From the UHGV virus genome UHGV-0132791: a stretch of DNA of 17,677 nt, one strand, 5' to 3'. How positions within the stretch are numbered: the first letter of the stretch is position 1; each line of letters begins with the position of its first letter. Position numbers and translations under genes: made by a program. The notes under the pieces are model-generated. The model was not told the origin of the DNA, searched no databases, and saw only the letters and a list, made by a program, of their open reading frames with translations. Of the stretch, positions 1 to 15,156 are shown one piece after another. Source of the stretch: a virus.

Positions 1-140
1 CACCACAGAGTGCACAGGCGCGCAGTGACACTGCGCTGGATCGTCTGATGCAGGGTGCACCGGCACCGCTGGCTGCAGGTAACCTGGCATCTGATACCAA
101 TAAAGAATTACTTAATACACCTGAAGCTTTACCGGTATAA
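1..140 (+). CDS. Capsid scaffold/protease (lambda Nu3/C-like), C-terminal fragment, truncated by window start
   Basis: Open frame (first full codon at 3) running to TAA at 138-140, ending 10 nt before the D start codon, as in the lambda Nu3/C-D arrangement. Identity inferred from position; the peptide (…LAAGNLASDTNKELLNTPEALPV*) was not independently verified. Confidence 0.55.
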   Translation, partial: PQSAQARSDTALDRLMQGAPAPLAAGNLASDTNKELLNTPEALPV

Positions 141-149
141 GAGGCAGTT

Positions 150-482
150 ATGGCGACAAAAGAAGAGTTTAACCATTACCAGCCGCTGGGTAACAGTGAT
201 CCGGCTCATACAGCAATTGCGCCTGGCGGATTGAGTGCGAAAACGCCTGCAATGACCCCGCTGATGCTGGATGGCACTACCCGTAAGCTGGTTGTGTGGG
301 ATGGCACCACCGACGGTGCAGCCGTTGGCATTCTGGCGGTTGCTGCTGACCAGACCAGCACCACACTGACGTTCTACAAGTCCGGCTCGTTCCGTTATGA
401 GGATGTGCTCTGGCCGGAGGCTGCCAGCGACGAGACTAAAAAACGGACCGCGTTTGCCGGAACGGCAATCAGCATCGTTTAA
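150..482 (+). CDS. D: Head decoration protein gpD (lambda D)
   Basis: 110-aa ORF; translation is near-identical to lambda gpD as I recall it ([30 protein letters not shown]…[35 protein letters not shown]). Confidence 0.95.
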
Positions 483-502
483 TCTTCCCCTTCATCAACA
501 AA

Positions 503-524
503 GGCCGCCTGTGCGGCTTTTTTT
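503..524 (+). terminator. GC-stem hairpin plus T7 run between D and E (terminator/attenuator-like)
   Basis: GCCGC(504-508) / loop CTGT / GCGGC(513-517) followed by TTTTTTT (518-524). Lies inside the late operon, so probably read through under antitermination. Confidence 0.45.
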
Positions 525-537
525 ATGGAAATAATTT

Positions 538-813
538 ATGTCTGTATATACAACCGCAGAATTACTGGCATCGACCCAGCATCACTTTAAGTTCGATCCG
601 CTGTTTCTGCGCCTGTTTTTCCGTGAAACCTATCCTTTCACCACGGAGAAAGTCTATCTCTCACAAATTCCGGGACTGGTAAACATGGCGCTGTACGTTT
701 CGCCGATTGTTTCCGGTGAGGTTATCCGATCCCGTGGCGGCTCCACCTCTGAATTTACGCCGGGTTATGTCAAACCCAAGCACTTAGCATGGCTTTCTGA
801 GGCTTTCGTGTAG
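538..813 (+). pseudogene. E: Major capsid protein gpE, 5' fragment (codons 1-82), interrupted by insertion; ends in 9 element-encoded codons and a stop
   Basis: Translation MSVYTTAELLA…FKFDPLFLRLFFRE.YPFTTEKVYLSQIPGLVNMALYVSPIVSGEVIRSRGGSTSEFTPGYVKPKH matches the lambda gpE N-terminus; similarity stops after codon CAC (781-783), followed by LAWLSEAFV* (TAG 811-813). Confidence 0.9.
773..782 (+). repeat. Left copy of 10-bp att core / target duplication (AACCCAAGCA)
   Basis: Exact 10-bp identity with 11397-11406, located exactly at the E breakpoint. Confidence 0.75.
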
Positions 814-892
814 TTGCTGGTTTTTACACTTAATCTTTTGATAATAAAGAATAAGTTTATCTGGTGCTTTCACTGAATTTTCCTCGTTATCT

Positions 893-930
893 GTGTGTTG
901 CAATCATCTCTGTATTGCAGCTTGTATTGC
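893..930 (+). repeat. Cluster of TGT(A/G)TTGCA direct repeats (candidate integrase arm-type sites), left end
   Basis: TGTGTTGCAA (895-904) and TGTATTGCAGCTTGTATTGC (911-930); a near-identical 20-mer (one mismatch) recurs at 11300-11319 near the right end. Confidence 0.5.
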
Positions 931-945
931 TTTTTGGGGCTAAAA

Positions 946-2181
946 ATGGCTGGCGAGAACAAACTGAGCGACAAAGCGCTTAAAGGATATCTGGGGAAAC
1001 CCAGAGAAAAGCAGATCACCATTGCTGATGGAAAGGGGCTTTCTATTCGTGTGAGTACTAAAGGGGCTGTGAGCTTTGTTTTCTTCTACAGGTTAGCAGG
1101 TGGCCGGGCTGCTCCGGTCTGGCTAACGTTGGGTAAATATCCTGATATGTCACTCAAACAGGCAAGGGAAAAGCGCGACGAGTGCCGTGGTTGGTTGGCT
1201 GACAAACGTGATCCGCGTATCCAGATTAAGATTCAGGCTGAAGAACGCTTAAAGCCGGTCACAGTGGAGGATGCACTAAATTACTGGTATGAAAATTACT
1301 GTAAGGTGCGTCGTAAAACTCATGCTGTAACGCTTGGCAGATTTCGAAAGCATATCTTTCCCTATATCGGTCATTTGCCCGTAAATGACACTCACCTATA
1401 TGAATGGCTGGACTGTTTTGACCGAATTAAACGTAATGCACCAGTTATGGCGGCGTATGTTTTTTCTGACACTAAATTAGCTCTTCGTTTTTGTCGGGTA
1501 CGCCAGTACGCGACGTGTGATGCTTTAAAGGATTTGCGCATGAGTGATGTGGGGCAGATTGCAGGTAAGCGGGATCGGGTTCTGGATGAAGCCGAACTCG
1601 GCCAGCTCTGGAAGGCAATTTTTGTCGAGCCTGATTTAAAACTAATGTCTGAATACACGCGAAAAATGTTTGTGCTTTGTACAGTATTTGGATGTCGAAT
1701 GAGTGAAGCCCGATTATCAGAATGGAGCGAATGGGATCTCGAAAGTTGGGTTTGGACTGTACCAAAAGATCACTCAAAAACTGGTGTTGAAATCGTCAGA
1801 CCAGTACCTGAAATTCTACGACAGTGGGTAACGGATGTTCACGAAGAGACAAAACATACTGGTTATGTGCTGGGAAGTCTGCGAATTAGAGAAAGCGTAA
1901 GCAAGATTGGGGGGAAAATCGGTAAACGTTTGGGCCATGAAAAACAATGGTCACTACACGACCTTAGAAGAACGCTATCTACTCATCTAAGTGATCTCGG
2001 TGTTGAATTTTATGTAGTAGAACAACTGTTAGGCCATGCGCTACCTGGCGTGGCAGGTGTTTACAACCGGAGTAAGTTTATGGCTAAAAAACTGGATGCT
2101 CTGGAACTCTGGACTACATATCTCAATAGCATCGCAGGTGCTGATTCAAAAGTGACAATCCTCAAACAAAAGGTTGGTTAA
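946..2181 (+). CDS. int: Tyrosine site-specific integrase, P4-like family
   Basis: ATG at 946 preceded by GGGG; N-terminal arm-binding-type region (…LSDKALKGY…DGKGLSIRVSTKGAVSFVFFYR…WLTLGKYPDMSLKQAR) and C-terminal catalytic motifs (LHDLRRT…LLGHA…GVYNRS). The ORF track starts at a GTG at 895; the ATG at 946 is preferred. Confidence 0.9.
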   Translation: MAGENKLSDKALKGYLGKPREKQITIADGKGLSIRVSTKGAVSFVFFYRLAGGRAAPVWLTLGKYPDMSLKQAREKRDECRGWLADKRDPRIQIKIQAEERLKPVTVEDALNYWYENYCKVRRKTHAVTLGRFRKHIFPYIGHLPVNDTHLYEWLDCFDRIKRNAPVMAAYVFSDTKLALRFCRVRQYATCDALKDLRMSDVGQIAGKRDRVLDEAELGQLWKAIFVEPDLKLMSEYTRKMFVLCTVFGCRMSEARLSEWSEWDLESWVWTVPKDHSKTGVEIVRPVPEILRQWVTDVHEETKHTGYVLGSLRIRESVSKIGGKIGKRLGHEKQWSLHDLRRTLSTHLSDLGVEFYVVEQLLGHALPGVAGVYNRSKFMAKKLDALELWTTYLNSIAGADSKVTILKQKVG

Positions 2182-2410
2182 CATGAAAAAAATGGCAATT
2201 GTTGATAAAAAGGGTCTGGAGTACATTCCTAACATTGACCGAATGATCCGTGAGAAAGAATGTCGGGAGCTAACCACTCTTGCGAACAGCACACGCTGGA
2301 AGCTGGAGAAGGAAGGAAAATTTCCTAAGCGGATCAAGATTGGTTCCACTGCTGTTGCATATCGTCTTTCAGAAGTGCAGGCATGGATTCGAGGTGAGTG
2401 GGTAGTTTAA
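2174..2410 (+). CDS. alpA: AlpA-family HTH protein (putative excisionase / transcriptional activator)
   Basis: Small ORF overlapping the int stop; …LTTLANSTRWKLEKEGKFPKRIKIGSTAVAYRLSEVQAWI is typical of the AlpA/Xis HTH family. ORF-track start is a TTG at 2174; the first ATG is at 2183. Confidence 0.7.
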   Translation: MVNMKKMAIVDKKGLEYIPNIDRMIREKECRELTTLANSTRWKLEKEGKFPKRIKIGSTAVAYRLSEVQAWIRGEWVV

Positions 2411-2435
2411 ATTATCTCAGAATAAAATATTATGA

Positions 2436-2471
2436 ATTACTGATTTGAGAATTTGTACTCAAATCAGTAAT
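2436..2471. terminator. 14-bp perfect inverted repeat between convergent genes (possible bidirectional terminator)
   Basis: ATTACTGATTTGAG (2436-2449) / loop 8 nt / CTCAAATCAGTAAT (2458-2471), between the alpA stop (2410) and the stop of the minus-strand gene (2480). AT-rich stem with no clean T-run, so weak. Confidence 0.35.
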
Positions 2472-2479
2472 AACATTCT

Positions 2480-3016
2480 TTATAAGAGATTAAATCCAAA
2501 TAAAGAGTAATCATATACCGGGGTGCATTGCATCCCACTGAATATGCTGATGTTTTTTTCTGTTTCTATCCTTTTTTCAATAAGTTGTTGTATATTTTTA
2601 CAGTACAATTTGTGTGTGATGTTATTATCGTAAGCCTGATATAGCAACGTCAATGTTGATGCTATGAAACATGCAGAAAGAAAATGAACTAGTACATGTG
2701 AGCGTTTTTTGGTTGTCCATGATGCATTCGCTTGTGAAATATAAATCATTCTGAGAATGATAATGATGATAGACAGTAACAGACCACTCAATAAAATAAG
2801 TATTGGGTTTGCGTATTTAATTAATGGTTGAGAGCAAAAAACTATTATAGCTCCTGTGACTGCGTATGAGAAAAAGGAGTAATTAAACTTCTTACTCCTT
2901 CTCTCAAGTATTTTAATTTCATCTTGTGTGGGGGGTTTAGATGCCTCCAATATAAGTTTATTAAATGTTTCTGTTATCTTGTTTTTTGTGTTTTTGGCTA
3001 TTTTTTTTAGATTCAT
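2480..3016 (-). CDS. Small membrane protein (two predicted hydrophobic helices), function unknown; AT-rich cargo gene
   Basis: 178-aa ORF with hydrophobic stretches (…AVTGAIIVFCSQPLIKYANPILILLSGLLLSIIIIILRMIYI… and …HVLVHFLSACFIASTLTLLYQAY…); visibly lower GC than its neighbours; GGAG-like SD upstream of the ATG (rc of 3014-3016). Confidence 0.6.
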   Translation of the reverse strand: MNLKKIAKNTKNKITETFNKLILEASKPPTQDEIKILERRSKKFNYSFFSYAVTGAIIVFCSQPLIKYANPILILLSGLLLSIIIIILRMIYISQANASWTTKKRSHVLVHFLSACFIASTLTLLYQAYDNNITHKLYCKNIQQLIEKRIETEKNISIFSGMQCTPVYDYSLFGFNLL

Positions 3017-3366
3017 AGCATTCTAACTCCCTTAACTTATTTATTACTTTCTCTTTATGATAAGAGAGGGGAATGACTTGGTAAAGTGATTTGTCATTAA
3101 TAATGATAATCCTTGCGATAAATATTTCTGCAAGTTATTTACCTGTTTGTTGCTATCTTGTTAAGCGTTGGGTGTGGTTTATGTTTGGAGCGACTTTATT
3201 TAATCGTGATTTTATGGATTTATATTTATATCCTGTAAGATAAGCGCATGTTAGTTCAGGAGTAGTGTCAGATAAAATTATTCGGAGTAGAACTACCTTT
3301 TCTGTTTATTGCCAGTATTTACATAGCAATGCGCCGTAGTTACTCACATCACGGCGCTGATACTAA

Positions 3367-3669
3367 TTATTCAGATTCTTTGGCTTTACGCCGCTGGAGT
3401 TCTTCACGAGCGACGGCTACGAGTTGCCCGATTTCCTCCGCTGCCTTGATGCCGATTTGTTCGACCTTAGCTAAGGCATCCAGTGAAGACACGAGGGGAT
3501 TTTCTCCGCTTCCTTCTGCCTGGCGGCGGGCGATCTCACCGCGCATGGCGGTTACTATGAATCCGGCGTTGCTTTCGCCGTCCAGTTTTACGGATTCCAT
3601 GCCCTCCATAACATCGTGGGGAACCCTGATCGTTGTCATTTGCGATTTTGCATTTTTGTATACAGACAT
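3367..3669 (-). CDS. Putative ribbon-helix-helix (Arc/CopG-like) transcriptional regulator; candidate element repressor
   Basis: 100-aa ORF; the N-terminus has an RHH-like pattern (β-strand TTIRVPHDV, helix, G-E-S-N turn, helix AGFIVTAMRGEIARR); transcribed divergently from the main element operon across a repeat-bearing intergenic region. Confidence 0.55.
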   Translation of the reverse strand: MSVYKNAKSQMTTIRVPHDVMEGMESVKLDGESNAGFIVTAMRGEIARRQAEGSGENPLVSSLDALAKVEQIGIKAAEEIGQLVAVAREELQRRKAKESE

Positions 3670-3877
3670 AGTTAATCACCAATTTGTTATGTGTATATCA
3701 CTATACACAAAAGTGAGATATAAAAACACTTGCAATGTATATCACCACAATATAATGTATATCTCATATTATGGTCGCTATGTATCTCACAATGATCGAT
3801 TCATAAAAACGACGAAACCCGGCAGTGCGCGAACACTAACCGGGCTTCTAACCAAACCGTTAAACGAGGTAACGATT
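3670..3877. promoter_or_regulatory. Divergent promoter/operator region with four ATGTATATC(A/T)C-type direct repeats
   Basis: TGTATATCAC at 3692-3701 and 3736-3745, TGTATATCTC at 3756-3765, TGTATCTCAC at 3781-3790; AT-rich; lies between the RHH gene start (3669) and the first gene of the plus-strand operon (3878). Confidence 0.5.
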
Positions 3878-4243
3878 ATGGCTGGAACACAGCATACCCA
3901 AACTCACCCTAAATTTATATACACCTTTCTGGCACTACACCACGACCGCATGGCAGATGGAGCAACTACGGTACATGTTGCCGCTGACACGCTGGTTGAT
4001 GCCCGCAAGATGGTTAAGGAGATGGGCTATACTGCGGCTTTCTGGAAAGGGCGTGAAGAAAACACGCTGTTTATTCAGAAATGCGAAAACAATTTCATCT
4101 GGCGTTTTATCGCCCTGAGCACCGCACAACCACGCGTAATACACATCGAGGCCGCCAGCGAACAGGAAGCCCGCCAACAATCCCCAACTGGCTGCGTGAT
4201 GATATTCGCCGCCCGTATTCGTCAGGAGGTATGCCGTGCTTAA
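3878..4243 (+). CDS. Hypothetical protein (first gene of element early operon)
   Basis: ATG at 3878 with GAGG 9-12 nt upstream. The ORF-track ORF 3329..4243 extends upstream antisense to the RHH gene; that extension is judged spurious. Confidence 0.55.
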   Translation: MAGTQHTQTHPKFIYTFLALHHDRMADGATTVHVAADTLVDARKMVKEMGYTAAFWKGREENTLFIQKCENNFIWRFIALSTAQPRVIHIEAASEQEARQQSPTGCVMIFAARIRQEVCRA

Positions 4244-4421
4244 AACCTTCCGTGTATTTGCTCGTGCGGTTAACCCACTAGGCCACACAATTGGTATCGC
4301 TCAGAACGTGAAGGCTGTTAATGTTCAGACGGCTATTGCTGCGGTGAGAAGCGAATCATCAGAATATGGCTTATCACAAGTCATTATTTCAGCAGTGTAT
4401 GAATTAAAAGAGGTGCATTAA
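4236..4421 (+). CDS. Hypothetical small protein
   Basis: GTG start at 4236 preceded by a strong AGGAGG (4224-4229); overlaps the upstream stop; 61 aa. Confidence 0.45.
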   Translation: MLKTFRVFARAVNPLGHTIGIAQNVKAVNVQTAIAAVRSESSEYGLSQVIISAVYELKEVH

Positions 4422-4612
4422 TGCAGGAAATTACATTACACGAAGCCGCTGAACGTGCGCACCAGACAGAAATTATTTGCCGCCTTCTTGAGGTATACCC
4501 GAACAAAATTACAGATGCTGATATATCCGCACTGGCGAGCCTACTGGCGCGTCTTTCGGGAAGTGTCGCTAGTTTTTTGATTGAGGAAGAAAGTAAGCTG
4601 GTGGGGGATTAA
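4421..4612 (+). CDS. Hypothetical small protein
   Basis: ATG overlapping the upstream stop (TAATG at 4419-4423), AGAGG SD; 63 aa. Confidence 0.5.
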   Translation: MQEITLHEAAERAHQTEIICRLLEVYPNKITDADISALASLLARLSGSVASFLIEEESKLVGD

Positions 4613-4834
4613 ATGAATACAGAACGGGAAGTCTTTTTTAAATTGTTAGCATGTGCAGAAAGTTCATTAACTTTAAATAATTCAGCAAAAGCAATATTAA
4701 ATATGTGGCTTGATTGCATAAATGACAATGAAGATGCAAATATTGCTTATGGCCTGTTGTCACTTATTGATGAAGCAGCAGAAAAACTCAATGACGCAAT
4801 AAATAGTGCCCTGCTATCAAATAAGTCGAGTTAA
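4613..4834 (+). CDS. Hypothetical small protein (AT-rich)
   Basis: ATG immediately after the preceding stop; 73 aa; lower GC than flanking genes. Confidence 0.45.
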   Translation: MNTEREVFFKLLACAESSLTLNNSAKAILNMWLDCINDNEDANIAYGLLSLIDEAAEKLNDAINSALLSNKSS

Positions 4835-4851
4835 GTCGAGGAATAAATAAT

Positions 4852-5151
4852 ATGGAAATGAAAAATTCTGGCTTTATTGCCAGCGGCCCCGCTCGGCCTG
4901 AATTTATGAACGGCGATATTTACCGCGATAAATACGGCGGCACGGTAACGATTAAAGGCGTGGCAGAACGGCGCATTACTTACCGCCGTGAGGGGTATAG
5001 CTATGACTGCGTGATGCCTGTTTATCAGTTCCGGCGTGATTTTTCCCTGGTATATGCCGCACCCCGCAGTAAGCCCATCAGCAGGGAAAAAGCGCGGGGA
5101 AACATCCAGAAAATGAAAAGCATGATTAACGCATTCAGGGGCAAAAAATGA
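4852..5151 (+). CDS. Hypothetical protein
   Basis: 99-aa ORF with GAGG SD; its stop overlaps the pri-rep start (ATGA at 5148-5151). Confidence 0.5.
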   Translation: MEMKNSGFIASGPARPEFMNGDIYRDKYGGTVTIKGVAERRITYRREGYSYDCVMPVYQFRRDFSLVYAAPRSKPISREKARGNIQKMKSMINAFRGKK

Positions 5152-6899
5152 AACTGGCACCGAACTTAAAAAAACAGCCACGCGACAGACTGACAGAGGT
5201 AATCATCTTTGCAGGTAGTGATGCGTGGAGCCATGCGAAAGAGTGGCAGGAATGGGCGGGTAAACATATTGCCGCCGACGATGTGCCGCCTGTCGTGCTG
5301 GCTGATGAGCAACTGAAAAATATCACCGATTACCGGATCATTGATGAAGATCGTCAGTGTGTGCGTGTTTACCGCGCAGGACATATCACAGAGCACAGCA
5401 TGACGCAGATTGTTACGTTATTGGCTGTGGCTGGAGTGAAGACCGTACACGAATACGCGGGGATTACTGACACCAGCCCCGTGGATTTATCCGACCAGTT
5501 GCCGCGACTCAAAGAGGAATGCGAGCGTGGGGAAAGTCTGGTGCTTAATCTTCCGACGAAGCAAAAGGCGCAACTTTCACAGATGGCAGACAGTGAACGT
5601 GCACAACTACTTGCCGATCGCTTTGATGGTGTGTGTGTTCATGCAGAAAGTGAAATCGTCCACGTATGGCGCGGCGGGGTATGGTGTCCGGTCAGCACAA
5701 TGGAGCTGAGCCGCGAAATGGTGGCGATCTATTCAGAGCACAGGGCCACATTCAGCAAGCGTGCAATTAATAACGCCGTGGAGGCGTTAAAAGTTATTGC
5801 CGACCCCATGGGGGAGCCGTCCGGTGATTTGCTACCGTTCGCCAATGGTGTGCTTGACCTGAAAACGGGGGAATTTTCCCCGCACTCGCCGGAGAACTGG
5901 ATCACCACGCACAACGGCATTGAGTACACGCCACCAGCACCAGGGGAGAACATCCGCGACAACGCGCCAAACTTTCATAAATGGCTTGATCACGCAGCCG
6001 GAAAAGACCCGCGCAAGATGATGCGTATATGTGCCGCGCTGTACATGATTATGGCGAACCGGTACGACTGGCAGATGTTTATTGAGGCCACCGGAGAGGG
6101 CGGTAGCGGTAAAAGTACATTCACACACATAGCCAGCCTTCTGGCAGGGAAACAGAACACGGTAAGCGCTGAAATGACATCGCTTGATGATGCTGGTGGA
6201 CGTGCGCAGGTTGTCGGGAGTCGTCTTATCGTCCTGGCTGACCAGCCGAAATATACAGGCGAAGGCACGGGCATCAAGAAAATCACGGGCGGCGACCCCG
6301 TGGAAATAAACCCGAAATATGAAAAGCGTTTTACGGCGGTAATCAGGGCGGTGGTGCTGGCTACCAACAATAACCCGATGATATTCACCGAACGGGCCGG
6401 AGGTGTGTCACGTCGTCGCGTAATTTTCCGCTTCGACAATATCGTTAGCGAGGCAGAAAAGGACAAGGATTTACCGGAGAAGGTCGCGGCTGAAATCCCC
6501 GTGATTATCCGCAGATTGCTGGCAAACTTTGCTGATCCAGAAAAGGCGCGACATTTGTTGATTGAACAGCGCGACGGTGAAGAAGCACTGGCGATAAAGC
6601 AACAGACGGATCCGGTTATTGAGTTTTGCCAGTTTCTGAATTTTCTGGAGGAAGCGCGCGGCCTGATGATGGGTGGCGGTGGCGATTCCGTGAAGTACAC
6701 GACCAGAAACAGCCTTTACCGCGTCTATCTGGCGTTTATGGCATACGCAGGCAGAAGCAAGCCGCTAAACGTGGCTGATTTCAGCAAGGCCATGAAGCCA
6801 GCGGCGAAAGTTTACGGATGTGAATATATAACGCGCAGGGTTAAAGGACTTACGCAAACCAATGTGACAACAACAGAGGATTGCGACGCGTTTTTATAA
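5148..6899 (+). CDS. Replication initiator, primase-helicase type (P4 alpha C-terminal / PICI Pri-Rep-like SF3 ATPase)
   Basis: 583 aa; Walker A GEGGSGKST (6093-6119), Walker B-like LIVLAD; overall pattern of the phage/plasmid primase P4-family C-terminal domain; followed directly by an iteron array. Confidence 0.85.
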   Translation: MKLAPNLKKQPRDRLTEVIIFAGSDAWSHAKEWQEWAGKHIAADDVPPVVLADEQLKNITDYRIIDEDRQCVRVYRAGHITEHSMTQIVTLLAVAGVKTVHEYAGITDTSPVDLSDQLPRLKEECERGESLVLNLPTKQKAQLSQMADSERAQLLADRFDGVCVHAESEIVHVWRGGVWCPVSTMELSREMVAIYSEHRATFSKRAINNAVEALKVIADPMGEPSGDLLPFANGVLDLKTGEFSPHSPENWITTHNGIEYTPPAPGENIRDNAPNFHKWLDHAAGKDPRKMMRICAALYMIMANRYDWQMFIEATGEGGSGKSTFTHIASLLAGKQNTVSAEMTSLDDAGGRAQVVGSRLIVLADQPKYTGEGTGIKKITGGDPVEINPKYEKRFTAVIRAVVLATNNNPMIFTERAGGVSRRRVIFRFDNIVSEAEKDKDLPEKVAAEIPVIIRRLLANFADPEKARHLLIEQRDGEEALAIKQQTDPVIEFCQFLNFLEEARGLMMGGGGDSVKYTTRNSLYRVYLAFMAYAGRSKPLNVADFSKAMKPAAKVYGCEYITRRVKGLTQTNVTTTEDCDAFL

Positions 6900-6904
6900 T
6901 TTTA

Positions 6905-7145
6905 GACAAAAGCCCTCTACCTCCTCTACCTAAAGAAAATAAATATATATTATTCAATATGATAAGAAGGTAGAGGGTCAGGTAGAAGGCAAATAAAAGC
7001 CCTCTACCTCCTCCACCATGATTAAGGTCATTTGTGAGGGGCGGGTAGAGGATGGGTAGAGGGCCCCGAAAGCCCTCTACCCATCTGAAAGCCGCGCCAT
7101 TACTGACCTGAAAGATGATTAGGTAGAGAGGTAGAGGAGGTGCAC
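6905..7145. repeat. Iteron array / putative element replication origin
   Basis: About 11 copies of CCTCTACC / GGTAGAGG in both orientations (e.g. 6913-6930, 6969-6989, 6999-7017, 7043-7063, 7073-7082, 7122-7140), including the inverted pair GGGTAGAGGGC…GCCCTCTACCC (7054-7082), flanking an AT-rich stretch (6931-6968); immediately 3' of the replication gene. Confidence 0.7.
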
Positions 7146-7185
7146 CACATTTCAAAACTTTTTAAACGAGGGGGTAAAAATAAAA

Positions 7186-7443
7186 ATGCACACATCAGGA
7201 AAACTGAACAAACATATAAAGCCACATTACCGCGCCCTTGATATGGCTGAACATTGGCTAAGGGTGGCGATTAAGGCAATAGATCGCAACGCCGGGGAAG
7301 GATACGCGAAAGCACATCCCGAACTGATAAGCGCATTCATGACAACGGCGGCTGCAAACTTTGCCACGCTGACCGAACGGGAGATTGCCGAAGCGGAGGA
7401 AGTGACAACCATCAATATTAAGTCCGGAGAGCAGGCAGCTTGA
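7186..7443 (+). CDS. Hypothetical protein
   Basis: 85-aa ORF, ATG at 7186 preceded by GAGGGGG; stop overlaps the start of the next gene. Confidence 0.5.
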   Translation: MHTSGKLNKHIKPHYRALDMAEHWLRVAIKAIDRNAGEGYAKAHPELISAFMTTAAANFATLTEREIAEAEEVTTINIKSGEQAA

Positions 7444-7850
7444 CGGCGCAAATAGCAGCTTACGGGCGGCTGGTGGACGACCCACAGGTAAAACATACCA
7501 GCAAGGGAGCACCCATGACACTGGCACGGATGACGGTATCTTTGCCATGCAGCCAGGCAGATGACGGAACGGCGACGATGTGGTTATCTGTCCTGGCGTT
7601 TGGCAGACAAGCCGACGCGCTGGCAAAGCATCACAAAGGCGAACTCCTGAGCGTGGCGGGTAATATGCAGGTGAGCCAGTGGAGCGGACAGAACGGTGAA
7701 ACGCGGCAGCGCTGGCAGGTTATCGCAGACAGCGTAATCAGTGCGCGAACGGTGCGACCTGGCGGGAACAGACGTAAAACCACAGGCACACAGGGCAACA
7801 CACCACCAGCGGGAGGGGATGATCTCTACGGTGACAATATTCCATTCTGA
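7440..7850 (+). CDS. ssb: Single-stranded DNA-binding protein (SSB-like, OB fold)
   Basis: Pattern resembling E. coli SSB (…GRLVDDPQV…, …WLSVLAFGRQADALAKHHKGELLSVAGNMQVSQWSGQNGETRQRWQVIAD…) and a C-terminal tip …DNIPF like the SSB DDDIPF tail. Start is a TTG at 7440 overlapping the upstream stop; exact start uncertain. Confidence 0.7.
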   Translation: MTAQIAAYGRLVDDPQVKHTSKGAPMTLARMTVSLPCSQADDGTATMWLSVLAFGRQADALAKHHKGELLSVAGNMQVSQWSGQNGETRQRWQVIADSVISARTVRPGGNRRKTTGTQGNTPPAGGDDLYGDNIPF

Positions 7851-7858
7851 ACGCACAG

Positions 7859-7878
7859 GCCGGAGAAATCCGGCTTTT
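7859..7878 (+). terminator. Rho-independent terminator downstream of ssb
   Basis: GCCGGA (7859-7864) / GAAA / TCCGGC (7869-7874) followed by TTTT (7875-7878). Confidence 0.6.
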
Positions 7879-8114
7879 ATCAGTTGAGTCCGTCACACCA
7901 CGCAAAAAAAAGGCCGGAATATTCCGACCCTTTCATCACCAAAGAGAATAATTTATGTCTTTGAACTTGTAACGCTGTACAGAATGACACGTAACGCCGG
8001 ATAAATAAACGAAGATTGAAACTTTGCACAATATTGCATAGCAATGCATAAAGATGCCGATCAAGGCAGATGATAAAATTAATACGACACTTTTACTAAG
8101 TATTAAGAGGTTAT

Positions 8115-9155
8115 ATGAGTGATTTATATTCGCCAGCGGAGTTAATACAGACTGTTAATGCTGAAGATATTCAATGGCAGATTAACTCTTTATTTATAAA
8201 CCTGTTTTTTAAGCGAGTCGTTACATTTGAGACGCGGGATATTGCGCTTGATATTATTGACGATCCAGACATCCCGATGGCTGCATTTTGTTCCCCTATG
8301 GTTGGTAGTAAAGTATCACGCGATGAAGGCTACGAATCAAAAGTAATTCGCCCTGGCTACATGAAGCCAAAAAGTAGTATAGACCCAAATAAAATAGCCG
8401 TTCGTCAACCAGGCGTATCACCGGAACAATTCAATGCATATTCATCACGCAATTTCAAAATAAAGCGAGCGATGGTAAGACAAGCGCAGGCCATTCGCGC
8501 ACGTATTGAATGGCTTGCTGTTCAGGCAATCACAACGGGGAAAAATATCATTGAGGGCGATGGCATTGAACGTTATGAACTGGACTGGAATATAAAACCA
8601 CAAAATATTATCACGCAGTCCGGCGGCACGGAGTGGAGCGGTAGAGATTTATCAACATTTGATCCAAATGATGACATCGAAGAGTACGCAGAAATCAGCG
8701 AAGGGACTACAAATATCATCGTAATGGGACGCAACGTATGGAAAAAATACCGCGCCTTTAAAGCAGTAAAAGATTGCCTTGATACTCGACGGGGATCTAA
8801 TTCCGTTCTTGAAACGGCCCTGAAAAATCTTGGGGATTCCGTCAGTTTTAAGGGTTACGTAGGCGATGTGGCTATTGTTGTGTATAGCGGACGTTATACC
8901 GACGAGGACGGAACAGAAAAATATTTCCTTGATCCTGATTTGATGGTTCTTGGCAATACATCACTTCAGGGCATCGTTGCATACGGTGGCATTCAGGATC
9001 CGGAGCTAATCCGAATGGGGCTGACTAAAGCCGAACTCGCACCGAAAAACTACATTGTGCCTGGAGATCCGGCTATTGAGTACGTACAAACGCACTCTGC
9101 ACCACAGCCAATACCGGCCCGCATCAATCGTTTTGTTACCGTTCGCATTGGTTAA
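8115..9155 (+). CDS. Element-encoded major capsid protein, lambda gpE paralogue
   Basis: 346 aa; clearly homologous but divergent from gpE (shared blocks PGYMKPK, ITQSGGTEWS.RD.ST.DP.DDIEEYA, KAVKD.LDTRRGSNS.LETA.K.LG..VS.KGY.GDVAIVVYSG.Y, MVLGNT); strong SD AAGAGG. Confidence 0.9.
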   Translation: MSDLYSPAELIQTVNAEDIQWQINSLFINLFFKRVVTFETRDIALDIIDDPDIPMAAFCSPMVGSKVSRDEGYESKVIRPGYMKPKSSIDPNKIAVRQPGVSPEQFNAYSSRNFKIKRAMVRQAQAIRARIEWLAVQAITTGKNIIEGDGIERYELDWNIKPQNIITQSGGTEWSGRDLSTFDPNDDIEEYAEISEGTTNIIVMGRNVWKKYRAFKAVKDCLDTRRGSNSVLETALKNLGDSVSFKGYVGDVAIVVYSGRYTDEDGTEKYFLDPDLMVLGNTSLQGIVAYGGIQDPELIRMGLTKAELAPKNYIVPGDPAIEYVQTHSAPQPIPARINRFVTVRIG

Positions 9156-9164
9156 GGGGGAGCA

Positions 9165-9506
9165 ATGGCTACTCATTACACTGAACTCATGGCTGGCACT
9201 GAAGCACTGGTTACTACGTTGGGGATATTTTCAGCTAATAAAGGGGTAATTCCTGCATTTACGCCACTGATGCAAGAAGATGCAACTGGTGCACTGGTGG
9301 TATGGGATGGAACGAGCGCAGGCAAAGCTGTTTATGTTTCCGCTGTACAAATCGATACAGCGACAAAAACGCAGGCTCAGGTTTATAAAACCGGCGTCTT
9401 AAATGTTGATGCTCTGAACTGGCCTGAGTCTGTAACACAACTATCAGCAAAAGTTGCTGCGTTTGTTGGCTCAGGTATTTCTGTTCAGCCGCTGGCACGT
9501 GTGTGA
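9165..9506 (+). CDS. Element-encoded head decoration protein, lambda gpD paralogue
   Basis: 113 aa; gpD-like blocks (TPLM…LVVWDGT…YKTG…WPE…) and length; immediately downstream of the capsid paralogue, with SD AAGGGGGAG. Confidence 0.8.
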   Translation: MATHYTELMAGTEALVTTLGIFSANKGVIPAFTPLMQEDATGALVVWDGTSAGKAVYVSAVQIDTATKTQAQVYKTGVLNVDALNWPESVTQLSAKVAAFVGSGISVQPLARV

Positions 9507-9515
9507 GGTACGAGA

Positions 9516-9860
9516 ATGATTGAAAGAGATAGTCAGCTACGAGAGCTATTAGATATCGATGACAAAATGCGCTTAAGCGAGCGTCTTGTCGATATGAATC
9601 AGGTGATGGAACTTACAACCCTGAGTCGCCGTACACTGCTAAACCTTGAGGCTCGTGGAGAGTTCCCTGAGCGTGTGCAGGTTACGGAAGGGCGTAAGGC
9701 TTGGTATTTAAGCGAGGTTGTTGAGTGGATTAACAATATCCCGCGAGCATCAAACTATTGCCTCGTACCCACACCGGAAAAACCTGATGCGGCGTTATGC
9801 CTCAAGATTGAACGCGCCAGGCGTAATGCCCTGAAAGGGCGCAATAAGTTGATTGGTTGA
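9516..9860 (+). CDS. Second AlpA-family HTH regulator
   Basis: 114 aa; …MNQVMELTTLSRRTLLNLEARGEFPERVQVTEGRKAWYLSEVVEWI… is AlpA/HTH_17-like; located between the decoration gene and the cos site. Confidence 0.7.
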   Translation: MIERDSQLRELLDIDDKMRLSERLVDMNQVMELTTLSRRTLLNLEARGEFPERVQVTEGRKAWYLSEVVEWINNIPRASNYCLVPTPEKPDAALCLKIERARRNALKGRNKLIG

Positions 9861-9868
9861 TGAAATTA

Positions 9869-9895
9869 GGGCCCGCTCTGGCTGGCGGGTCCTTT
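9869..9895 (+). terminator. GC-rich hairpin plus short T run after second AlpA-like gene
   Basis: GGGCCCGC (9869-9876) / 8-nt loop / GCGGGTCC (9885-9892) with one G·U pair, followed by TTT. Confidence 0.35.
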
Positions 9896-9913
9896 CCGGC
9901 AATCCGGCAGACT

Positions 9914-9950
9914 ACGGGGCGGAAGGCGCGCGGGTTTTCGCTATTTATGA
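9914..9950. other. cos-like site (cosN region) of the element
   Basis: ACGGGGCGGAAGGCGCGCGGGTTTTCGCTATTTATGA: flanks match the lambda cos left-end sequence as I recall it (…ACGGGGCGGCGACCTCGCGGGTTTTCGCTATTTATGA…), but the central hexamer differs (AAGGCG vs CGACCT); lies about 150 bp upstream of the Nu1-like TerS, as in lambda. Confidence 0.6.
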
Positions 9951-10076
9951 GCATTTTTAGGGGACTGGTGGTGGTTTTGTTGTTCGCTATATCTGTATGA
10001 ATAATAAGAGAAAAACACAATCAACACACCAACCTGAAACAGTAATTAAGTTGTGGTATCAATGAAATTGCACCTG

Positions 10077-10604
10077 ATGAACAAAAAAAACATGGCAAAA
10101 AGTTGCCGTGTAAGCGCCACTGCGTTCGATAAGTGGGGAGTGATTCCCGTCGAGCGTAAGGGCCGCGAGGCGTTTTATGATGTCGCCAGTGTAATAGATA
10201 ATCGGGTTAACAATGCAATCAGCCAGATTACAAACGAAACGGGCGAGATTGATGATGATGAACTCCTACGAGTCAGGATCAGATTGCTGACAGCACAGGC
10301 AGAGGCGCAGGAGCTTAAAAACGAGCGCGAACGCGGCGACGTTATTGATACAGCGTTTTGTATATACGTGCTTTCAAAACTGGCGAGTCAGATTTCTTCA
10401 ATCATGGACAGCCTGCCGCTTGCCATGACAAGGAAGTTTCCCGACATGAAGCCGTCTATGCTGGATGGACTGAAAAAAGAAGTTATCAGAGCCTGTAACG
10501 CATGCGCAAAACTTGACGAAAACATACCGCTGATGCTGTCCGATTATCTGATGGAAACTGCCGGAAACGTACCGGATAAGTTGCAGCTGAATAAAGATAA
10601 GTAA
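10077..10604 (+). CDS. Terminase small subunit, lambda Nu1-like
   Basis: Homology to lambda Nu1 (MNKKNMAKS…YDVASVID…LLTAQAEAQELKNERERGDVIDTAFCIYVLSKLASQISSIMDSLPLAMTRKFPDMK vs Nu1 …LTRAQADAQELKNARDSAEVVETAFCTFVLSRIAGEIASILDGLPLSVQRRFPELE). ORF track begins at a GTG at 10053; ATG 10077 is chosen by alignment with the Nu1 N-terminus. Confidence 0.85.
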   Translation: MNKKNMAKSCRVSATAFDKWGVIPVERKGREAFYDVASVIDNRVNNAISQITNETGEIDDDELLRVRIRLLTAQAEAQELKNERERGDVIDTAFCIYVLSKLASQISSIMDSLPLAMTRKFPDMKPSMLDGLKKEVIRACNACAKLDENIPLMLSDYLMETAGNVPDKLQLNKDK

Positions 10605-10615
10605 CGTAGTACGCT

Positions 10616-10897
10616 ATGACTGAATCCGAAATACTGCGATTAATCCGCCGTGCTTGTGGAATCAGCAAGCAGCATGACGAACAGGCCACGCAGCCGGACA
10701 GCGTGATCGCCGAAAATTACGCGCGTGTTGTTGCTGATGTGATGCGCCGTGATGGTATTGAGCTTAACGGCGTGGATATGCGCGACATACGGATCAGATT
10801 CCTTGAGTTGCTGGCATACCGTCGCCGTTCTCAACAACGAAGGGAGAGCGCGAAAAACACTTATCAGTGGAAGAAGCCGGAACGGTTGCGGCGGTAG
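10616..10897 (+). CDS. Hypothetical basic protein downstream of TerS
   Basis: 93-aa ORF, ATG at 10616 twelve nt after the TerS stop; no recognisable similarity to terminase large subunit. Confidence 0.45.
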   Translation: MTESEILRLIRRACGISKQHDEQATQPDSVIAENYARVVADVMRRDGIELNGVDMRDIRIRFLELLAYRRRSQQRRESAKNTYQWKKPERLRR

Positions 10898-11235
10898 ATT
10901 CCTGATATTCAGGAAAACCACGAATCCGGGGGTTTACTGGCGCGGTTACGGCGGTGACACACACCGAGGCAGAACAATTACCGTAGGTTAAAGCGACAGT
11001 ATTCACACCAAAGGCAGAAATTAGCTGTTAACGTAACTGACTGATATTTTCGGGAACAGCCAACGGCTGAGGCCGGAGCTATAAAAATAGCTTTGGGTAC
11101 AGTCCTCAGTTTTGAGGGATGTTAACCAACTGAATAATAAGCAAACCTCAAAATTGAGTTTTGTATCTGCCTGAGTTATTTCTGTGCTAACTTGCTGATA
11201 TTCCCGATAACGCAAAATTGCGTTGGCTGGTGGGT

Positions 11236-11255
11236 GAGTTGCAGATCTGCAACTC
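11236..11255. repeat. 20-bp perfect palindrome GAGTTGCAGATCTGCAACTC near right end of element
   Basis: Exact dyad symmetry over 20 bp, about 140 bp inside the right att core; contains the TTGCA motif shared with the arm-type repeats. Confidence 0.6.
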
Positions 11256-11299
11256 GGCTATGAAACTTAATAATCGAACAGCATGTAAATTCATTTCTG

Positions 11300-11320
11300 T
11301 GTATTGCAGCATGTATTGCA
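11300..11320 (+). repeat. TGTATTGCAGCATGTATTGCA direct repeats (candidate arm-type sites), right end
   Basis: Matches 911-930 (TGTATTGCAGCTTGTATTGC) with one mismatch, in the same orientation, about 77 bp inside the right core. Confidence 0.5.
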
Positions 11321-11396
11321 ACATAGTCATTCTGGTAGAGATTATGCTCTATTTTTCCTCTTATATCATTCACATACTTACGTCATTGACTCATGT

Positions 11397-11406
11397 AACC
11401 CAAGCA
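11397..11406 (+). repeat. Right copy of 10-bp att core / target duplication (AACCCAAGCA)
   Basis: Identical to 773-782; preceded by an in-frame TAA (11396-11398) that ends the element-side frame. Confidence 0.75.
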
Positions 11407-12187
11407 TGAGGTGAATCCGCAGATGACCCTGCGTCGCCTGCCGGATGAAGATCCGCAGAACCTGGCTGACCCGGCTTACCGTCGTCGCCGTATTATTCGG
11501 CAGAATATGCTGGATGAAAATCTGGCGATTGCCCAGGTCGAAGAGATGCAGGCAGTTTCTGCCGTGCTTAAGGGCAAATATACCATGACCGGTGAAGCCT
11601 TCGATCCGGTTGAGGTGGATATGGGCCGCAGTGAGGCGAATAACATCACGCAGTCCGGCGGCACGGAGTGGAGCAAGCGTGACAAGTCCACGTATGACCC
11701 GACCGACGATATCGAAGCCTACGCGCTGAACGCCAGCGGTGTGGTGAATATCATCGTGTTCGATCCGAAAGGCTGGGCGCTGTTCCGTTCCTTCAAAGCC
11801 GTCAAGGAGAAGCTGGATACCCGTCGCGGCTCTCATTCCGAGCTGGAGACAGCGGTAAAAGACCTGGGCAAAGCGGTGTCCTATAAGGGAATGTATGGCG
11901 ATGTGGCCATCGTCGTGTATTCCGGACAGTACGTGGAAAACGGCGTCAAAAAGAACTTCCTGCCGGACAACACGATGGTGCTGGGGAACACTCAGGCTCG
12001 CGGTCTGCGCACCTATGGCTGCATTCAGGATGCGGACGCACAGCGCGAAGGCATTAACGCCTCTGCCCGTTACCCGAAAAACTGGGTGACCACCGGCGAT
12101 CCGGCGCGTGAGTTCACCATGATTCAGTCAGCACCGCTGATGCTGCTGGCTGATCCTGATGAGTTCGTGTCCGTACAACTGGCGTAA
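11399..12187 (+). pseudogene. E: Major capsid protein gpE, 3' fragment (codons ~80-341), separated from its 5' part by the insertion
   Basis: Translation PKHEVNPQMTLRRLPDEDPQNLADPAYRRRRII…DEFVSVQLA* matches the lambda gpE C-terminal 260 residues almost exactly; there is no start codon or RBS of its own at the homology boundary (the ORF track starts at an internal GTG at 11411). Confidence 0.9.
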
Positions 12188-12227: not shown

Positions 12228-12623
12228 ATGACGAAAGATGAACTGATTGCCCGTCTCCGCTCGCTGGGTGAACAACTGAACCGTGATGTCAGCCTGACGG
12301 GGACGAAAGAAGAACTGGCGCTCCGTGTGGCAGAGCTGGAAGAGGAGCTTGATGACACGGATGACGCTGCCGGTCAGGACACATCTGTCAGCCCGGAAAA
12401 TGCGCTGACCGGACATGAAAATGAGGTGGTATCAGCGCAGCCGGATACCGTGACTGATACGGCTGATCTGGTCACGGTTGTGGCACTGGTGACGCTGCAT
12501 ACTGATGCACTTCACGCCACGCGGGATGAACCTGTGGCATTTGTGCTGCCGGGAACGGCGTTCCGTGTCTCTGCCGGTGTGGCAGCTGAAATGACAGAGC
12601 GCGGCCTGGCCAGAATGCAATAA
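12228..12623 (+). CDS. FI: DNA packaging protein FI
   Basis: MTKDELIARLRSLGEQLNRDVSLTGTKEELALRVAEL… …AFRVSAGVAAEMTERGLARMQ matches lambda gpFI (some substitutions mid-protein); ATG at 12228 with GGAGGAG SD. The ORF track starts upstream at 12159. Confidence 0.9.
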   Translation: MTKDELIARLRSLGEQLNRDVSLTGTKEELALRVAELEEELDDTDDAAGQDTSVSPENALTGHENEVVSAQPDTVTDTADLVTVVALVTLHTDALHATRDEPVAFVLPGTAFRVSAGVAAEMTERGLARMQ

Positions 12624-12634
12624 CGGGAGGCGCT

Positions 12635-12988
12635 GTGGCTGATTTCGATAACCTGTTCGATGCTGCCATTGCCCGCGCCGATGAAACGATACGCGGGTAC
12701 ATGGGAACGTCAGCCACCATGACATCCGGTGAGCAGTCCGGCGCAGTAATACGTGGTGTTTTTGATGACCCTGAAAATATCAGCTATGCCGGACAGGGCG
12801 TGCGCGTTGAAGGCTCCAGCCCGTCCCTGTTTGTCCGGACTGATGATGTGCGGCAGCTGCGGCGCGGCGACACGCTGACCATCGGTGAGGAAAACTTCTG
12901 GATAGACCGGATTTCGCCGGATGATGGCGGAAGCTGTCATCTCTGGCTTGGGCGGGGCGTACCGCCTGCCGTTAACCGTCGCCGCTGA
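12635..12988 (+). CDS. FII: Head-tail joining protein FII
   Basis: (GTG)ADFDNLFDAAIARADETIRGYMGTSAT…LWLGRGVPPAVNRRR matches lambda gpFII. Confidence 0.9.
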   Translation: MADFDNLFDAAIARADETIRGYMGTSATMTSGEQSGAVIRGVFDDPENISYAGQGVRVEGSSPSLFVRTDDVRQLRRGDTLTIGEENFWIDRISPDDGGSCHLWLGRGVPPAVNRRR

Positions 12989-12999
12989 AAGGGGGATGT

Positions 13000-13578
13000 A
13001 TGGCCATAAAAGGTCTTGAGCAGGCCGTTGAAAACCTCAGCCGTATCAGCAGAACGGCGGTGCCCGGTGCCGCCGCAATGGCCATTAACCGCGTTGCTTC
13101 ATCCGCGATATCGCAGTCGGCGTCACAGGTTGCTCGTGAGACAAAGGTACGCCGGAAACTGGTAAAGGAAAGGGCCAGGCTGAAAAGGGCCACGGTCAAA
13201 AATCCGCAGGCCAGAATCAAGGTTAACCGGGGGGATTTGCCCGTAATCAGGCTGGGTAACGCGCGGGTTGTCCTGTCCCGACGCAGGCGTCGTAAAAAGG
13301 GGCAGCGTTCATCCCTGAAAGGTGGCGACAGCGTGCTTGTGGTGGGAAACCGTCGTATTCCCGGCGCGTTTATTCAGCAACTGAAAAATGGCCGCTGGCA
13401 TGTCATGCAGCGTGTGGCCGGGAAAAACCGTTACCCCATTGATGTGGTGAAAATCCCGATGGCGGTGCCGCTGACCACGGCGTTTAAACAGAATATTGAA
13501 CGGATACGGCGTGAACGTCTTCCGAAAGAGCTGGGCTATGAGCTGCAGCATCAACTGAGAATGGTAATAAAGCGATGA
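13000..13578 (+). CDS. Z: Tail assembly/completion protein Z
   Basis: MAIKGLEQAVENLSRIS…[16 protein letters not shown] matches lambda gpZ; stop overlaps the U start. Confidence 0.9.
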   Translation: MAIKGLEQAVENLSRISRTAVPGAAAMAINRVASSAISQSASQVARETKVRRKLVKERARLKRATVKNPQARIKVNRGDLPVIRLGNARVVLSRRRRRKKGQRSSLKGGDSVLVVGNRRIPGAFIQQLKNGRWHVMQRVAGKNRYPIDVVKIPMAVPLTTAFKQNIERIRRERLPKELGYELQHQLRMVIKR

Positions 13579-13970
13579 AACATACTGAACTCCGTGCAGC
13601 CGTACTGGATGCACTGGAAAAACATGACACCGGGGCGACGCTTTTTGATGGTCGCCCCGCTGTTTTTGATGAGGAGGATTTTCCGGCAGTTGCCGTTTAT
13701 CTCACCGGCGCTGAATACACGGGCGAAGAGCTGGACAGCGATACCTGGCAGGCGGAGCTGCATATTGAAGTTTTCCTGCCTGCTCAGGTGCCGGATTCAG
13801 AGCTGGATTCGTGGATGGAGTCCCGGATTTATCCGGTGATGAGCGATGTCCCGGCACTGTCAGATTTGATCACCAGTATGGTGGCCAGTGGCTATGACTA
13901 CCGGCGCGACGATGATGCGGGCCTGTGGAGTTCAGCCGATCTGACTTATGTCATTACCTATGAAATGTGA
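13575..13970 (+). CDS. U: Tail terminator protein U
   Basis: [33 protein letters not shown]… matches lambda gpU. Confidence 0.9.
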
Positions 13971-13977
13971 GGACGAT

Positions 13978-14718: not shown

Positions 14719-14733
14719 TCCGGAGAGTCAGCG

Positions 14734-15156
14734 ATGTTCCTGAAAACCGAATCATTTGAATATAACGGCGTGACCGTCACGCTTTCTGAACTGTCAGCCC
14801 TGCAGCGTATTGAGCATCTTGCCCTGATGAAACGGCAGGCAGAACCGGCGGGATCCGACAGCAACCGGCAGGTTACTGTGGAAGACGTCATCAGAACCGG
14901 CGCGTTTCTGGTGGCGATGTCCCTGTGGCATAACCATCCGAAGAAGACGCAGATGCCGTCCATGAATGAAGCCGTTAAACAGATTGAGCAGGAAGTGCTT
15001 ACCACCTGGCCCACAGAGGCAATTTCTCATGCTGAAAACGTGGTGTACCGGCTGTCCGGTATGTATGAGTTTGTGGTGAATAATGCCCCCGAACAGGCAG
15101 AGGACGCCGGGCCTGCAGAGCCTGTTTCTGCGGGAAAGTGTTCGACGGTGAGCTGA
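14734..15156 (+). CDS. G: Tail assembly chaperone G
   Basis: MFLKTESFE.NGVTVTLSELSALQRIEHLALMKRQAE… matches lambda gpG; ends at TGA 15154-15156. Confidence 0.9.
   Translation: MFLKTESFEYNGVTVTLSELSALQRIEHLALMKRQAEPAGSDSNRQVTVEDVIRTGAFLVAMSLWHNHPKKTQMPSMNEAVKQIEQEVLTTWPTEAISHAENVVYRLSGMYEFVVNNAPEQAEDAGPAEPVSAGKCSTVS

Follow-up and report, generated by a model that had tools for sequence, protein, structure and literature searches.

Satellites embedded in the late genes of their own helper prophages, the helper-embedded phage-inducible chromosomal islands (HE-PICIs), were described by Tommasini, Mageeney and Williams (NAR Genom Bioinform 2023; PMC10111431), after a preprint in 2022. The founding example, Eco567.11capE (hereafter 11capE) of Escherichia coli NRG857c, is an 11-kb phage-inducible chromosomal island (PICI) in the lambda-type capsid gene of prophage 50icd with a 10-bp identity block, and its site group, E:Phage_cap_E:80, is the founding and most frequent of 14 late-gene sites, with 201 of the 491 elements (PMC10111431). 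The same authors have reported a doubled motif unique to HE-PICIs, tgTGTATTGCantgTGTATTGCa, in two co-oriented copies, which lie on either side of the attP centre at 81 ± 2 bp upstream and 132 ± 2 bp downstream. Upon treatment with mitomycin C, the whole 61-kb composite with 11capE excises from icd and replicates first, as followed by quantitative PCR; excision of the satellite is first detected at 2 h and reaches 42–98% of the excised composites, and deep-sequencing reads confirm precise attB and attP, with E rebuilt (PMC10111431). In the literature library searched, no study after 2023 pursues HE-PICIs, and the four later papers found use the term once each. The present analysis concerns a stretch of 17,677 nucleotides of the virus genome UHGV-0132791 (the window, taken at its full length), in which a 10.6-kb insert splits a lambdoid prophage's major capsid gene E. 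The insert is very probably an HE-PICI of the E:Phage_cap_E:80 group, whose integrase would recombine the 10-bp core of attP with codons 79–82 of E in its own helper prophage. An original prediction, made from the sequence alone, had read a satellite at this position and had implied that a family using the helper capsid gene as its site was new. The novelty does not hold, as the family was published in the 2022 preprint and the 2023 paper with 201 instances (PMC10111431). The window is thus a further example of a published phenomenon and not a discovery, and serves as a positive control for reading such an arrangement from raw sequence. [quoted passage not shown]

The split capsid gene and its attachment sites

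The insert divides E between D and FI, with the following features at its ends. Perceval is a free phage with an intact E.

538–782, + strand: helper major capsid gene E, 5′ part (codons 1–82)
773–782, + strand: attL copy of AACCCAAGCA, at E codons 79–82; 10-bp identity block
783–11406, + strand: very probable HE-PICI satellite, 10,624 bp including one core copy
911–930, + strand: doubled TGTATTGC motif, downstream attP arm; its start, flanking bases counted, lies about 131.5 bp away from the core centre
11300–11319, + strand: doubled TGTATTGC motif, upstream attP arm; its end, one flanking base counted, lies about 81.5 bp away from the core centre
11397–11406, + strand: attR copy of AACCCAAGCA, the second core copy
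11399–12187, + strand: helper gene E, 3′ part (codons 80–341 and stop), 100% identical to Perceval E

The core AACCCAAGCA is present in exactly two copies in the window, both on the + strand, where 0.07 would be expected by chance; two copies were reached in 2 of 200 shuffles. The open reading frame (ORF) at 538–813 resembles lambda E up to ...PGYVKPKH, continues for nine foreign, satellite-derived codons (LAWLSEAFV) and ends at a stop at 811–813. The 3′ part is without an in-frame start, and a TAA lies immediately 5′ of 11399. In the resident state E is disrupted, as in other HE-PICIs, because attP supplies no replacement sequence. Removal of 783–11406 in silico gives a lambda-type E of 341 codons, and the two pieces are 100% identical at the protein level to residues 1–82 and 80–341 of the Perceval capsid protein. 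The original prediction had described the 10-bp repeat at both junctions, the split E and its restoration to 341 codons, and every detail checked is correct; the attP junction it wrote is also recovered by reconstruction, as ...TCATGT-AACCCAAGCA-CTTAGCATGG....

Two complete genomes carry AGCCGAAGCA as the core at both attL and attR, with unchanged spacing of the arm motifs (locus L001 of E. coli GN06489, at 7991–8000 and 18879–18888; locus L002, at 7991–8000 and 19057–19066). The 10-bp identity block differs between elements, and this suggests that the obligatory crossover segment may be the shared right part, AAGCA. The case-marking in the published attachment site alignments agrees with such a segment (PMC10111431). 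At the homologous position the capsid gene of the satellite itself reads AAGCCAAAAAGT, with no match to the core, and should therefore not be a target of self-integration. The same absence of the core from the satellite's own capsid gene was noted for 11capE (PMC10111431).

Membership of the family was decided by direct comparison with 11capE. The window integrase is identical to that of 11capE in NRG857c at 409 of 411 residues (99.5%), and at the DNA level NRG857c matches positions 1–3997, which cover attL, int, alpA and the regulatory zone, with 98.3% identity and the right flank with 97.6%. Tommasini et al. list the core 'aacccaagca' for Eco567.11.E_Phage_cap_E_80, whose attL is one base off that of the window, and their attR alignment contains the exact attR-proximal sequence of the window for three catalogued elements, including Eco2673.11 and Eco8357.11 (PMC10111431). 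The doubled TGTATTGC motif occurs only at the two window sites given above (0 of 200 shuffles gave any match), and the offsets of both arms are invariant in every related locus where both copies were found. The insert lies inside a lambdoid late gene, and its int, alpA, pri, cap and terS share the + strand with the late genes. Its integrase belongs to the 11capE clade, in the subclade that goes with this site group, judged by the 409/411 identity, and its core, at E codons 79–82, is identical to the published aacccaagca. It is also without a full set of virion genes, and would depend on a helper for its particles. No sequence feature contradicts HE-PICI membership. To judge from these matches, the arrangement is already known, with the same site, the same 10-bp core and a near-identical integrase in a published family.

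Recurrence of the junctions and the empty site

Of 5,426 complete E. coli genomes, 172 contain the left junction unbroken, from the 5′ part of E through the core into the start of int; about 3,000 others match E up to position 782 exactly and no further. On the right, homology in complete E. coli genomes starts at 11393–11397. No genome spans at least 80% of 11100–11700, because the right end of the satellite is variable between elements, and this is not evidence against the junction. Annotated complete chromosomes show a capsid pseudogene 'missing C-terminus', the satellite, and a capsid pseudogene 'missing N-terminus'. Among metagenomes, a 49-kb contig (99.88% identical) from an independent assembly spans both junctions, and an 11.6-kb contig (99.97% identical) from a second independent assembly extends about 230 bp past the right one. 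That the closest matches found are metagenome-assembled contigs could speak for an assembly chimera, in which a prophage contig was misjoined with an unrelated island. This explanation is already refuted and deserves practically no credence, since the same left junction stands in 172 complete genomes, both junctions stand in annotated complete chromosomes, the independent 49-kb contig covers both and the 11.6-kb contig passes the right one, and published PCR and deep sequencing have confirmed the junctions of the family (PMC10111431).

As reconstructed, the empty site is found uninterrupted in 80 genomes of phages and in 3,102 complete genomes. The insert itself is unmatched in 50,697 phage records except for 73 bp of cos-like sequence, which indicates that it is not carried in packaged phage genomes. 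The original prediction had proposed site-specific integration and not gene decay, and had held that E is disrupted while the element is resident and would be restored by its excision. The first proposal agrees with the integrase, 99.5% identical to that of 11capE, and with a core, site and arm motifs that match the family; the second is supported, attB-restoring excision having been published for 11capE (PMC10111431), and the exact empty site of free phages lends it indirect support. Recurrence of the junctions in 172 complete genomes and in independent metagenome assemblies, attB in the intact E genes of 3,102 genomes and 80 phages, and the published excision of the type element at this site (PMC10111431) are likewise in its favour. 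Random insertion or gene decay was also considered, and is excluded by the invariant junction, core and arm sites.

A decayed relative was observed in strain 24A16CRGN010 (L004, NZ_CM148325.1, locus 18001–29125). It keeps an intact attL and int, with 99.6% identity to the left junction of the window; IS1 interrupts the satellite capsid gene, and the right end of the satellite, attR, the E 3′ part and the helper tail genes have been lost. Close relatives of the window element are found in strains FDAARGOS_1296 and GN06489.

Gene content of the satellite

The following features were assigned within the insert (aa, amino acids; dN/dS, ratio of nonsynonymous to synonymous substitution rates).

946–2181, + strand: tyrosine integrase (Arm-DNA-bind_3 and Phage_integrase), co-oriented with E, ATG start at 946
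2183–2410, + strand: AlpA (excisionase / transcription factor family); Pfam Phage_AlpA, E = 3e-15
2436–2471, + strand: terminator-like hairpin with a 14-bp stem, between alpA and the convergent ORF
2480–3016, − strand: 178-aa ORF, no family assignment
3367–3669, − strand: YlcI/YnfO-family protein; NCBIfam YlcI_YnfO_N, phrog_6522
3878–4243, + strand: Icd-like ORF of the cell-division-inhibitor family, first gene of the rightward early block; NCBIfam phage_ICD_like, E = 8e-22
4236–4834, + strand: three small ORFs (61, 63 and 73 aa) of phage/PICI families; phrog_3672, phrog_1478, phrog_2196
4852–5151, + strand: DUF4222 protein, directly 5′ of the primase
5148–6899, + strand: replication primase (D5_N, DUF5906, Pox_D5)
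6909–7141, no strand: probable origin, about 12 CCTCTACC/GGTAGAGG iterons in both orientations, AT-rich core
7515–7850, + strand: single-strand DNA-binding protein; Pfam SSB, gene call as in L008
8115–9155, + strand: major capsid protein of the satellite, from the lambda E family; 42% identity with helper E, dN/dS 0.03–0.09
9165–9506, + strand: head decoration protein of the satellite, from the lambda D family; 44% identity with helper D
9516–9860, + strand: second AlpA-family helix-turn-helix (HTH) regulator, late zone
9886–9957, + strand: cos-like site (cosQ-cosN region), about 72 bp, 82% identical to the NRG857c helper cos
10062–10604, + strand: Nu1-family small terminase (TerS), full length (180 aa); Pfam Phage_Nu1, dN/dS 0.17
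10616–10897, + strand: 93-aa conserved PICI protein; phrog_1561

Tommasini et al. have divided HE-PICIs and Gram-negative PICIs into four zones, namely Integration (int, alpA), Bro/immunity, Replication (pri, ssb, ori) and Late, and have placed the origin of Gram-negative PICIs downstream of pri, as with the iterons here (PMC10111431). The Integration, Replication and Late zones are clearly present in the insert, and the second zone contains the YlcI-like and Icd-like ORFs together with uncharacterised ORFs. All genes run rightward like the late operon, save the two leftward ORFs after alpA (178-aa and YlcI/YnfO-like). No portal, protease, large terminase (TerL), tail or lysis gene was found among the ORFs scanned in the 10.6-kb insert. 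By its gene content, the insert is a satellite of the Gram-negative PICI type, and the integrase, regulatory, replication, capsid and packaging modules of the original prediction are confirmed by domain and family matches. Between alleles, the satellite cap, dec and terS show dN/dS of 0.03–0.17, which indicates that they are kept by purifying selection.

The 178-aa ORF had no match in Pfam (sub-threshold DUF443 only), PHROGs, NCBIfam or PADLOC, and a 537-bp hypothetical gene is annotated at its position in 11capE and other relatives. The PADLOC scan of the unassigned ORFs gave no defence-system match, and the element carries no recognisable defence cargo, unlike 11capE. In an exact-protein look-up the primase was matched, and the integrase read from 943 and TerS read from an upstream GTG were unmatched. 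The part of the query that holds the 93-aa protein matches well over 1,000 complete E. coli genomes.

The intact E, D and Nu1 homologues under purifying selection could in principle substitute for the interrupted gene, and a 'backup copy' idea was raised in the HE-PICI paper (PMC10111431). The insert might then be a permanent phage module, either a moron or a substitute head module that is packaged along with the phage, the satellite E and D replacing the split E. Such a module is extremely unlikely. The insert has its own integrase, attachment arms, primase and origin; apart from the 73 bp of cos-like sequence it is absent from the 50,697 phage records; the same late module occurs, away from prophages, in a chromosomal PICI of the ordinary kind, whose integrase is unrelated (42% identity); and the 61-kb NRG857c composite exceeds the size of insert tolerated in lambda packaging, about 10% of the genome (PMC10111431).

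Several features were also observed in the regulatory zone. Between the divergent YlcI-like (leftward) and Icd-like (rightward) genes, positions 3689–3792 contain four copies of a TGTATATC(A/T)C-like motif, which look like operator sites of a satellite regulatory switch. A candidate cis-antisense small RNA was found on the minus strand at 3795–3890, with two hairpins followed by a U-run (minimum free energy −35.8 kcal/mol, z = −4.7), and runs antisense to the start of the Icd-like ORF, opposite its ATG (3878) and ribosome-binding site. Its match to Rfam SymR is sub-threshold, at 35 bits (E = 0.0017) where the gathering score is 61. The Rfam scan at E <= 1 detected no C4/isrK immunity RNA; besides the SymR-like match it returned two spurious microRNA matches on the origin iterons.

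The cos-like site and the small terminase

The cos-like site was located by aligning the helper cos region of NRG857c to the insert. At the position of cosN the window reads GGGCGGAAGGCG against GGGCGGCGACCT in the helper, and the cosB region downstream is unrelated to that of the helper. The cosN varies among related satellites: the window has GGGCGGAAGGCG and 11capE GGGCGTCAGGCG, and the satellite of GN06489 carries the helper-type GGGCGGCGACCT (regions compared: window 9886–9957, L003:11059–11316, L005:2420–2677 and L001 of GN06489:17100–17335). The TerS of the GN06489 satellite is 100% identical at the protein level to that of the window despite its helper-type cosN. A search for the lambda cosN GGGCGGCGACCT with up to two mismatches gave one match, in the primase gene (6287–6298, 11/12), and this candidate was rejected as chance, since 159 of 200 shuffles also match; it is contained in a palindrome, CACGGGCGGCGACCCCGTG, at 6284–6302, which is probably also due to chance.

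The window TerS aligns over its whole length with Nu1 of a related helper prophage (E. coli GN06489; 38% identity, residues 9–170 of 183), and the C-terminal part is best conserved. A sequence search of the PDB chains with the Nu1-like protein gave no match to RppC or to the Nu1 DNA-binding domain at E <= 1, and sequence alone therefore cannot place the N-terminal domain as Rpp-like or Nu1-like. At least 80% of the cos-terS query is covered in 190 complete genomes; as it is also present in a chromosomal PICI, the module is not peculiar to embedded elements.

The helper prophage around the insert

When joined, the flanks of the insert give a single colinear blastn alignment to Perceval, with 97.8% identity over 7,054 bp and a single gap of 1 bp; the predicted empty site is found in Perceval without a base of difference. 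The other helper genes of the window (end of C, D, FI to T and start of H) are full length relative to Perceval.

150–482, + strand: intact helper gene for the head decoration protein, cognate of lambda D; the product matches Pfam HDPD and is 100% identical to Perceval D
12228–17677, + strand: helper late genes FI, FII, Z, U, V, G, T and start of H, full length relative to Perceval

Helper prophages of embedded satellites were also observed to carry iss, the gene for the increased serum survival lipoprotein, just 5′ of cos (L001 of E. coli GN06489, 573–866; L004, NZ_CM148325.1, 10809–11102; L005, 587–880). Its presence in these helpers indicates that the composite belongs to a virulence-associated prophage lineage.

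Proposed mechanism and its alternatives

On the HE-PICI reading, Q-dependent late transcription of the helper from D would read through the truncated E into int-alpA. A terminator scan of 482–946 on the + strand found no terminator-like site between the 5′ part of E and int, and a strong hairpin follows alpA. Satellite excision would be timed by the late phase of the helper, and synthesis of the helper capsid protein would be blocked or delayed until the satellite leaves. The excised satellite would replicate by its own primase and iteron origin, and would be packaged from its own cos-like site by the helper TerL. In this variant the Nu1-type TerS of the satellite may recruit the helper TerL, and the heads used may contain the satellite homologues of E and D. 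A parasite of a virus sits in the capsid gene of that virus, which could form no heads until the parasite leaves, and the satellite would be replicated and probably transcribed in cis by its host virus.

Several points weigh against this reading. The regulatory zone of the four-zone scheme contains no detected Bro-N domain protein or C4/isrK RNA, and the functional steps are carried over to the window copy by analogy with 11capE, for which the authors recovered no infectious particles of helper or satellite (PMC10111431). The helper is visible over 17.7 kb only, and its early region, cos and terminase could be defective. In addition, the window cosN differs from the helper-type cosN at 5 of 12 bases, so that efficient cutting by a lambda-type terminase is not assured.

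Some of these points also bear on a fossil copy. The HE-PICI insertion would then be genuine but would have lost excision or transfer, the helper perhaps being defective, so that the capsid gene is permanently inactivated. Many HE-PICI helpers look truncated, and virions were not obtained even for the type element (PMC10111431). The element of 24A16CRGN010 has decayed, with IS1 in the satellite capsid gene and loss of attR and helper tail genes, the helper portal gene of GN06489 has an internal stop, and the window shows part of its helper only. However, all satellite genes and all visible helper genes of the window are full length, the parts of the helper E are 100% identical to the capsid protein of a free phage, and the cores and arm motifs, two of each, are intact. 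For the structural genes of the satellite dN/dS is 0.03–0.17, and the integrase is 2 of 411 residues off the 11capE integrase, which excises experimentally. A fossil copy is accordingly considered improbable, and an HE-PICI capable of excision is preferred.

The satellite structural genes raise a further proposal, which is speculative and rather doubtful, namely that the variant is a partly capsid-forming embedded satellite. While it silences helper E, its own E/D shell would be built around the helper portal and protease, and its own TerS would bring the helper TerL to the satellite cos, bypassing both E and TerS of the helper. A smaller shell specified by the satellite is conceivable, as by rough scaling one 10.6-kb unit would correspond to a head of about T=3 size and two units to about T=4 size. 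If true, the variant would be an intermediate between the Rpp-type PICIs and the capsid-forming PICIs (cf-PICIs).

Comparison with known systems

The window element and 11capE have in common the gene order int, alpA, icd-like, DUF4222, pri, ssb, cap, dec and HTH, the target gene and codon, the 10-bp core, the arm motifs with their spacing, and a lambdoid helper. They differ in the replication module, which is another allele in the window, with the primase alignable only over 5140–5441 at 74% nucleotide identity, and in the capsid allele, which is 84.7% identical at the protein level (dS, the synonymous divergence, about 1.1). 11capE also carries HEPN and DUF262 cargo genes that are absent from the window element. 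At the packaging end, 11capE has 258 bp of helper-like cos at 90% (the published figure was reproduced), followed by a short ORF of 64 aa where the Nu1 gene would start, whereas the window element has a full-length Nu1-type terS and a non-helper cosB. Relative to 11capE, the window element is, on these alignments, a mosaic.

Classical Gram-negative PICIs such as EcCICFT073 (Fillol-Salom et al., 2018, 2019) resemble the window element in size, in the unidirectional int-alpA-pri order, in an origin after pri, and in having a capsid E homologue and a cos site; in PICIs of the EcCICFT073 type, a packaging-specificity gene follows the late HTH regulator, as in the window. They differ in their chromosomal integration sites, in interacting with the helper only in trans, and in their distant integrase. 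The Rpp type of EcCICFT073 has a winged HTH domain and a dimerisation helix, and is thought to be without the TerL-binding C-terminus. The characterised Rpp proteins, which take the corresponding position in EcCICFT073-type PICIs, are 144–153 aa long, whereas the window protein has 180 aa and aligns with Nu1 through its C-terminal part. In length, C-terminal alignment to Nu1 and Pfam family (Phage_Nu1), the window TerS does not fit the Rpp type of packaging redirection. A chromosomal PICI with the same gene order was observed in strain Ec1115 (NZ_CP126614.1, 3687–13286), between cspD/yljB and clpS and far from any prophage; it shares the cap-dec-HTH-terS-93aa late module, with an integrase only 42% identical. 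Modules pass between embedded and non-embedded PICIs, and the embedded lifestyle is set by the integrase alone.

The cf-PICIs are said to carry a complete head and packaging set, with portal, protease, large terminase and connectors. The window element is like the cf-PICIs of Alqurainy et al. (2023) in encoding its own major capsid protein and small terminase; of such a set, the ORFs scanned hold E-like, D-like and Nu1-like genes only, with no portal, protease or TerL. Satellite P4 shares with the window element an integrase with Arm-DNA-bind_3 and catalytic domains, an AlpA-type regulator, a D5/DUF5906 primase and reliance on the structural genes of a helper. It differs in its P2-like helper and its integration in a tRNA gene, the helper of the window being lambdoid, and neither the capsid-size and transactivation families Sid, Psu or Delta among the Pfam and PHROG matches of the scanned ORFs nor a C4/isrK RNA was found in the window element.

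Regulated gene integrity is represented by elements such as skin of Bacillus subtilis, SpyCI in mutL and the Listeria phage phi10403S in comK. The concept is cited in the discussion of the HE-PICI paper (PMC10111431). As in these elements, the gene at the window locus is split without a replacement end, and a timed excision would rebuild it. The difference is that the interrupted gene here belongs to the helper phage, and the proposed switch would serve the satellite and not the cell.

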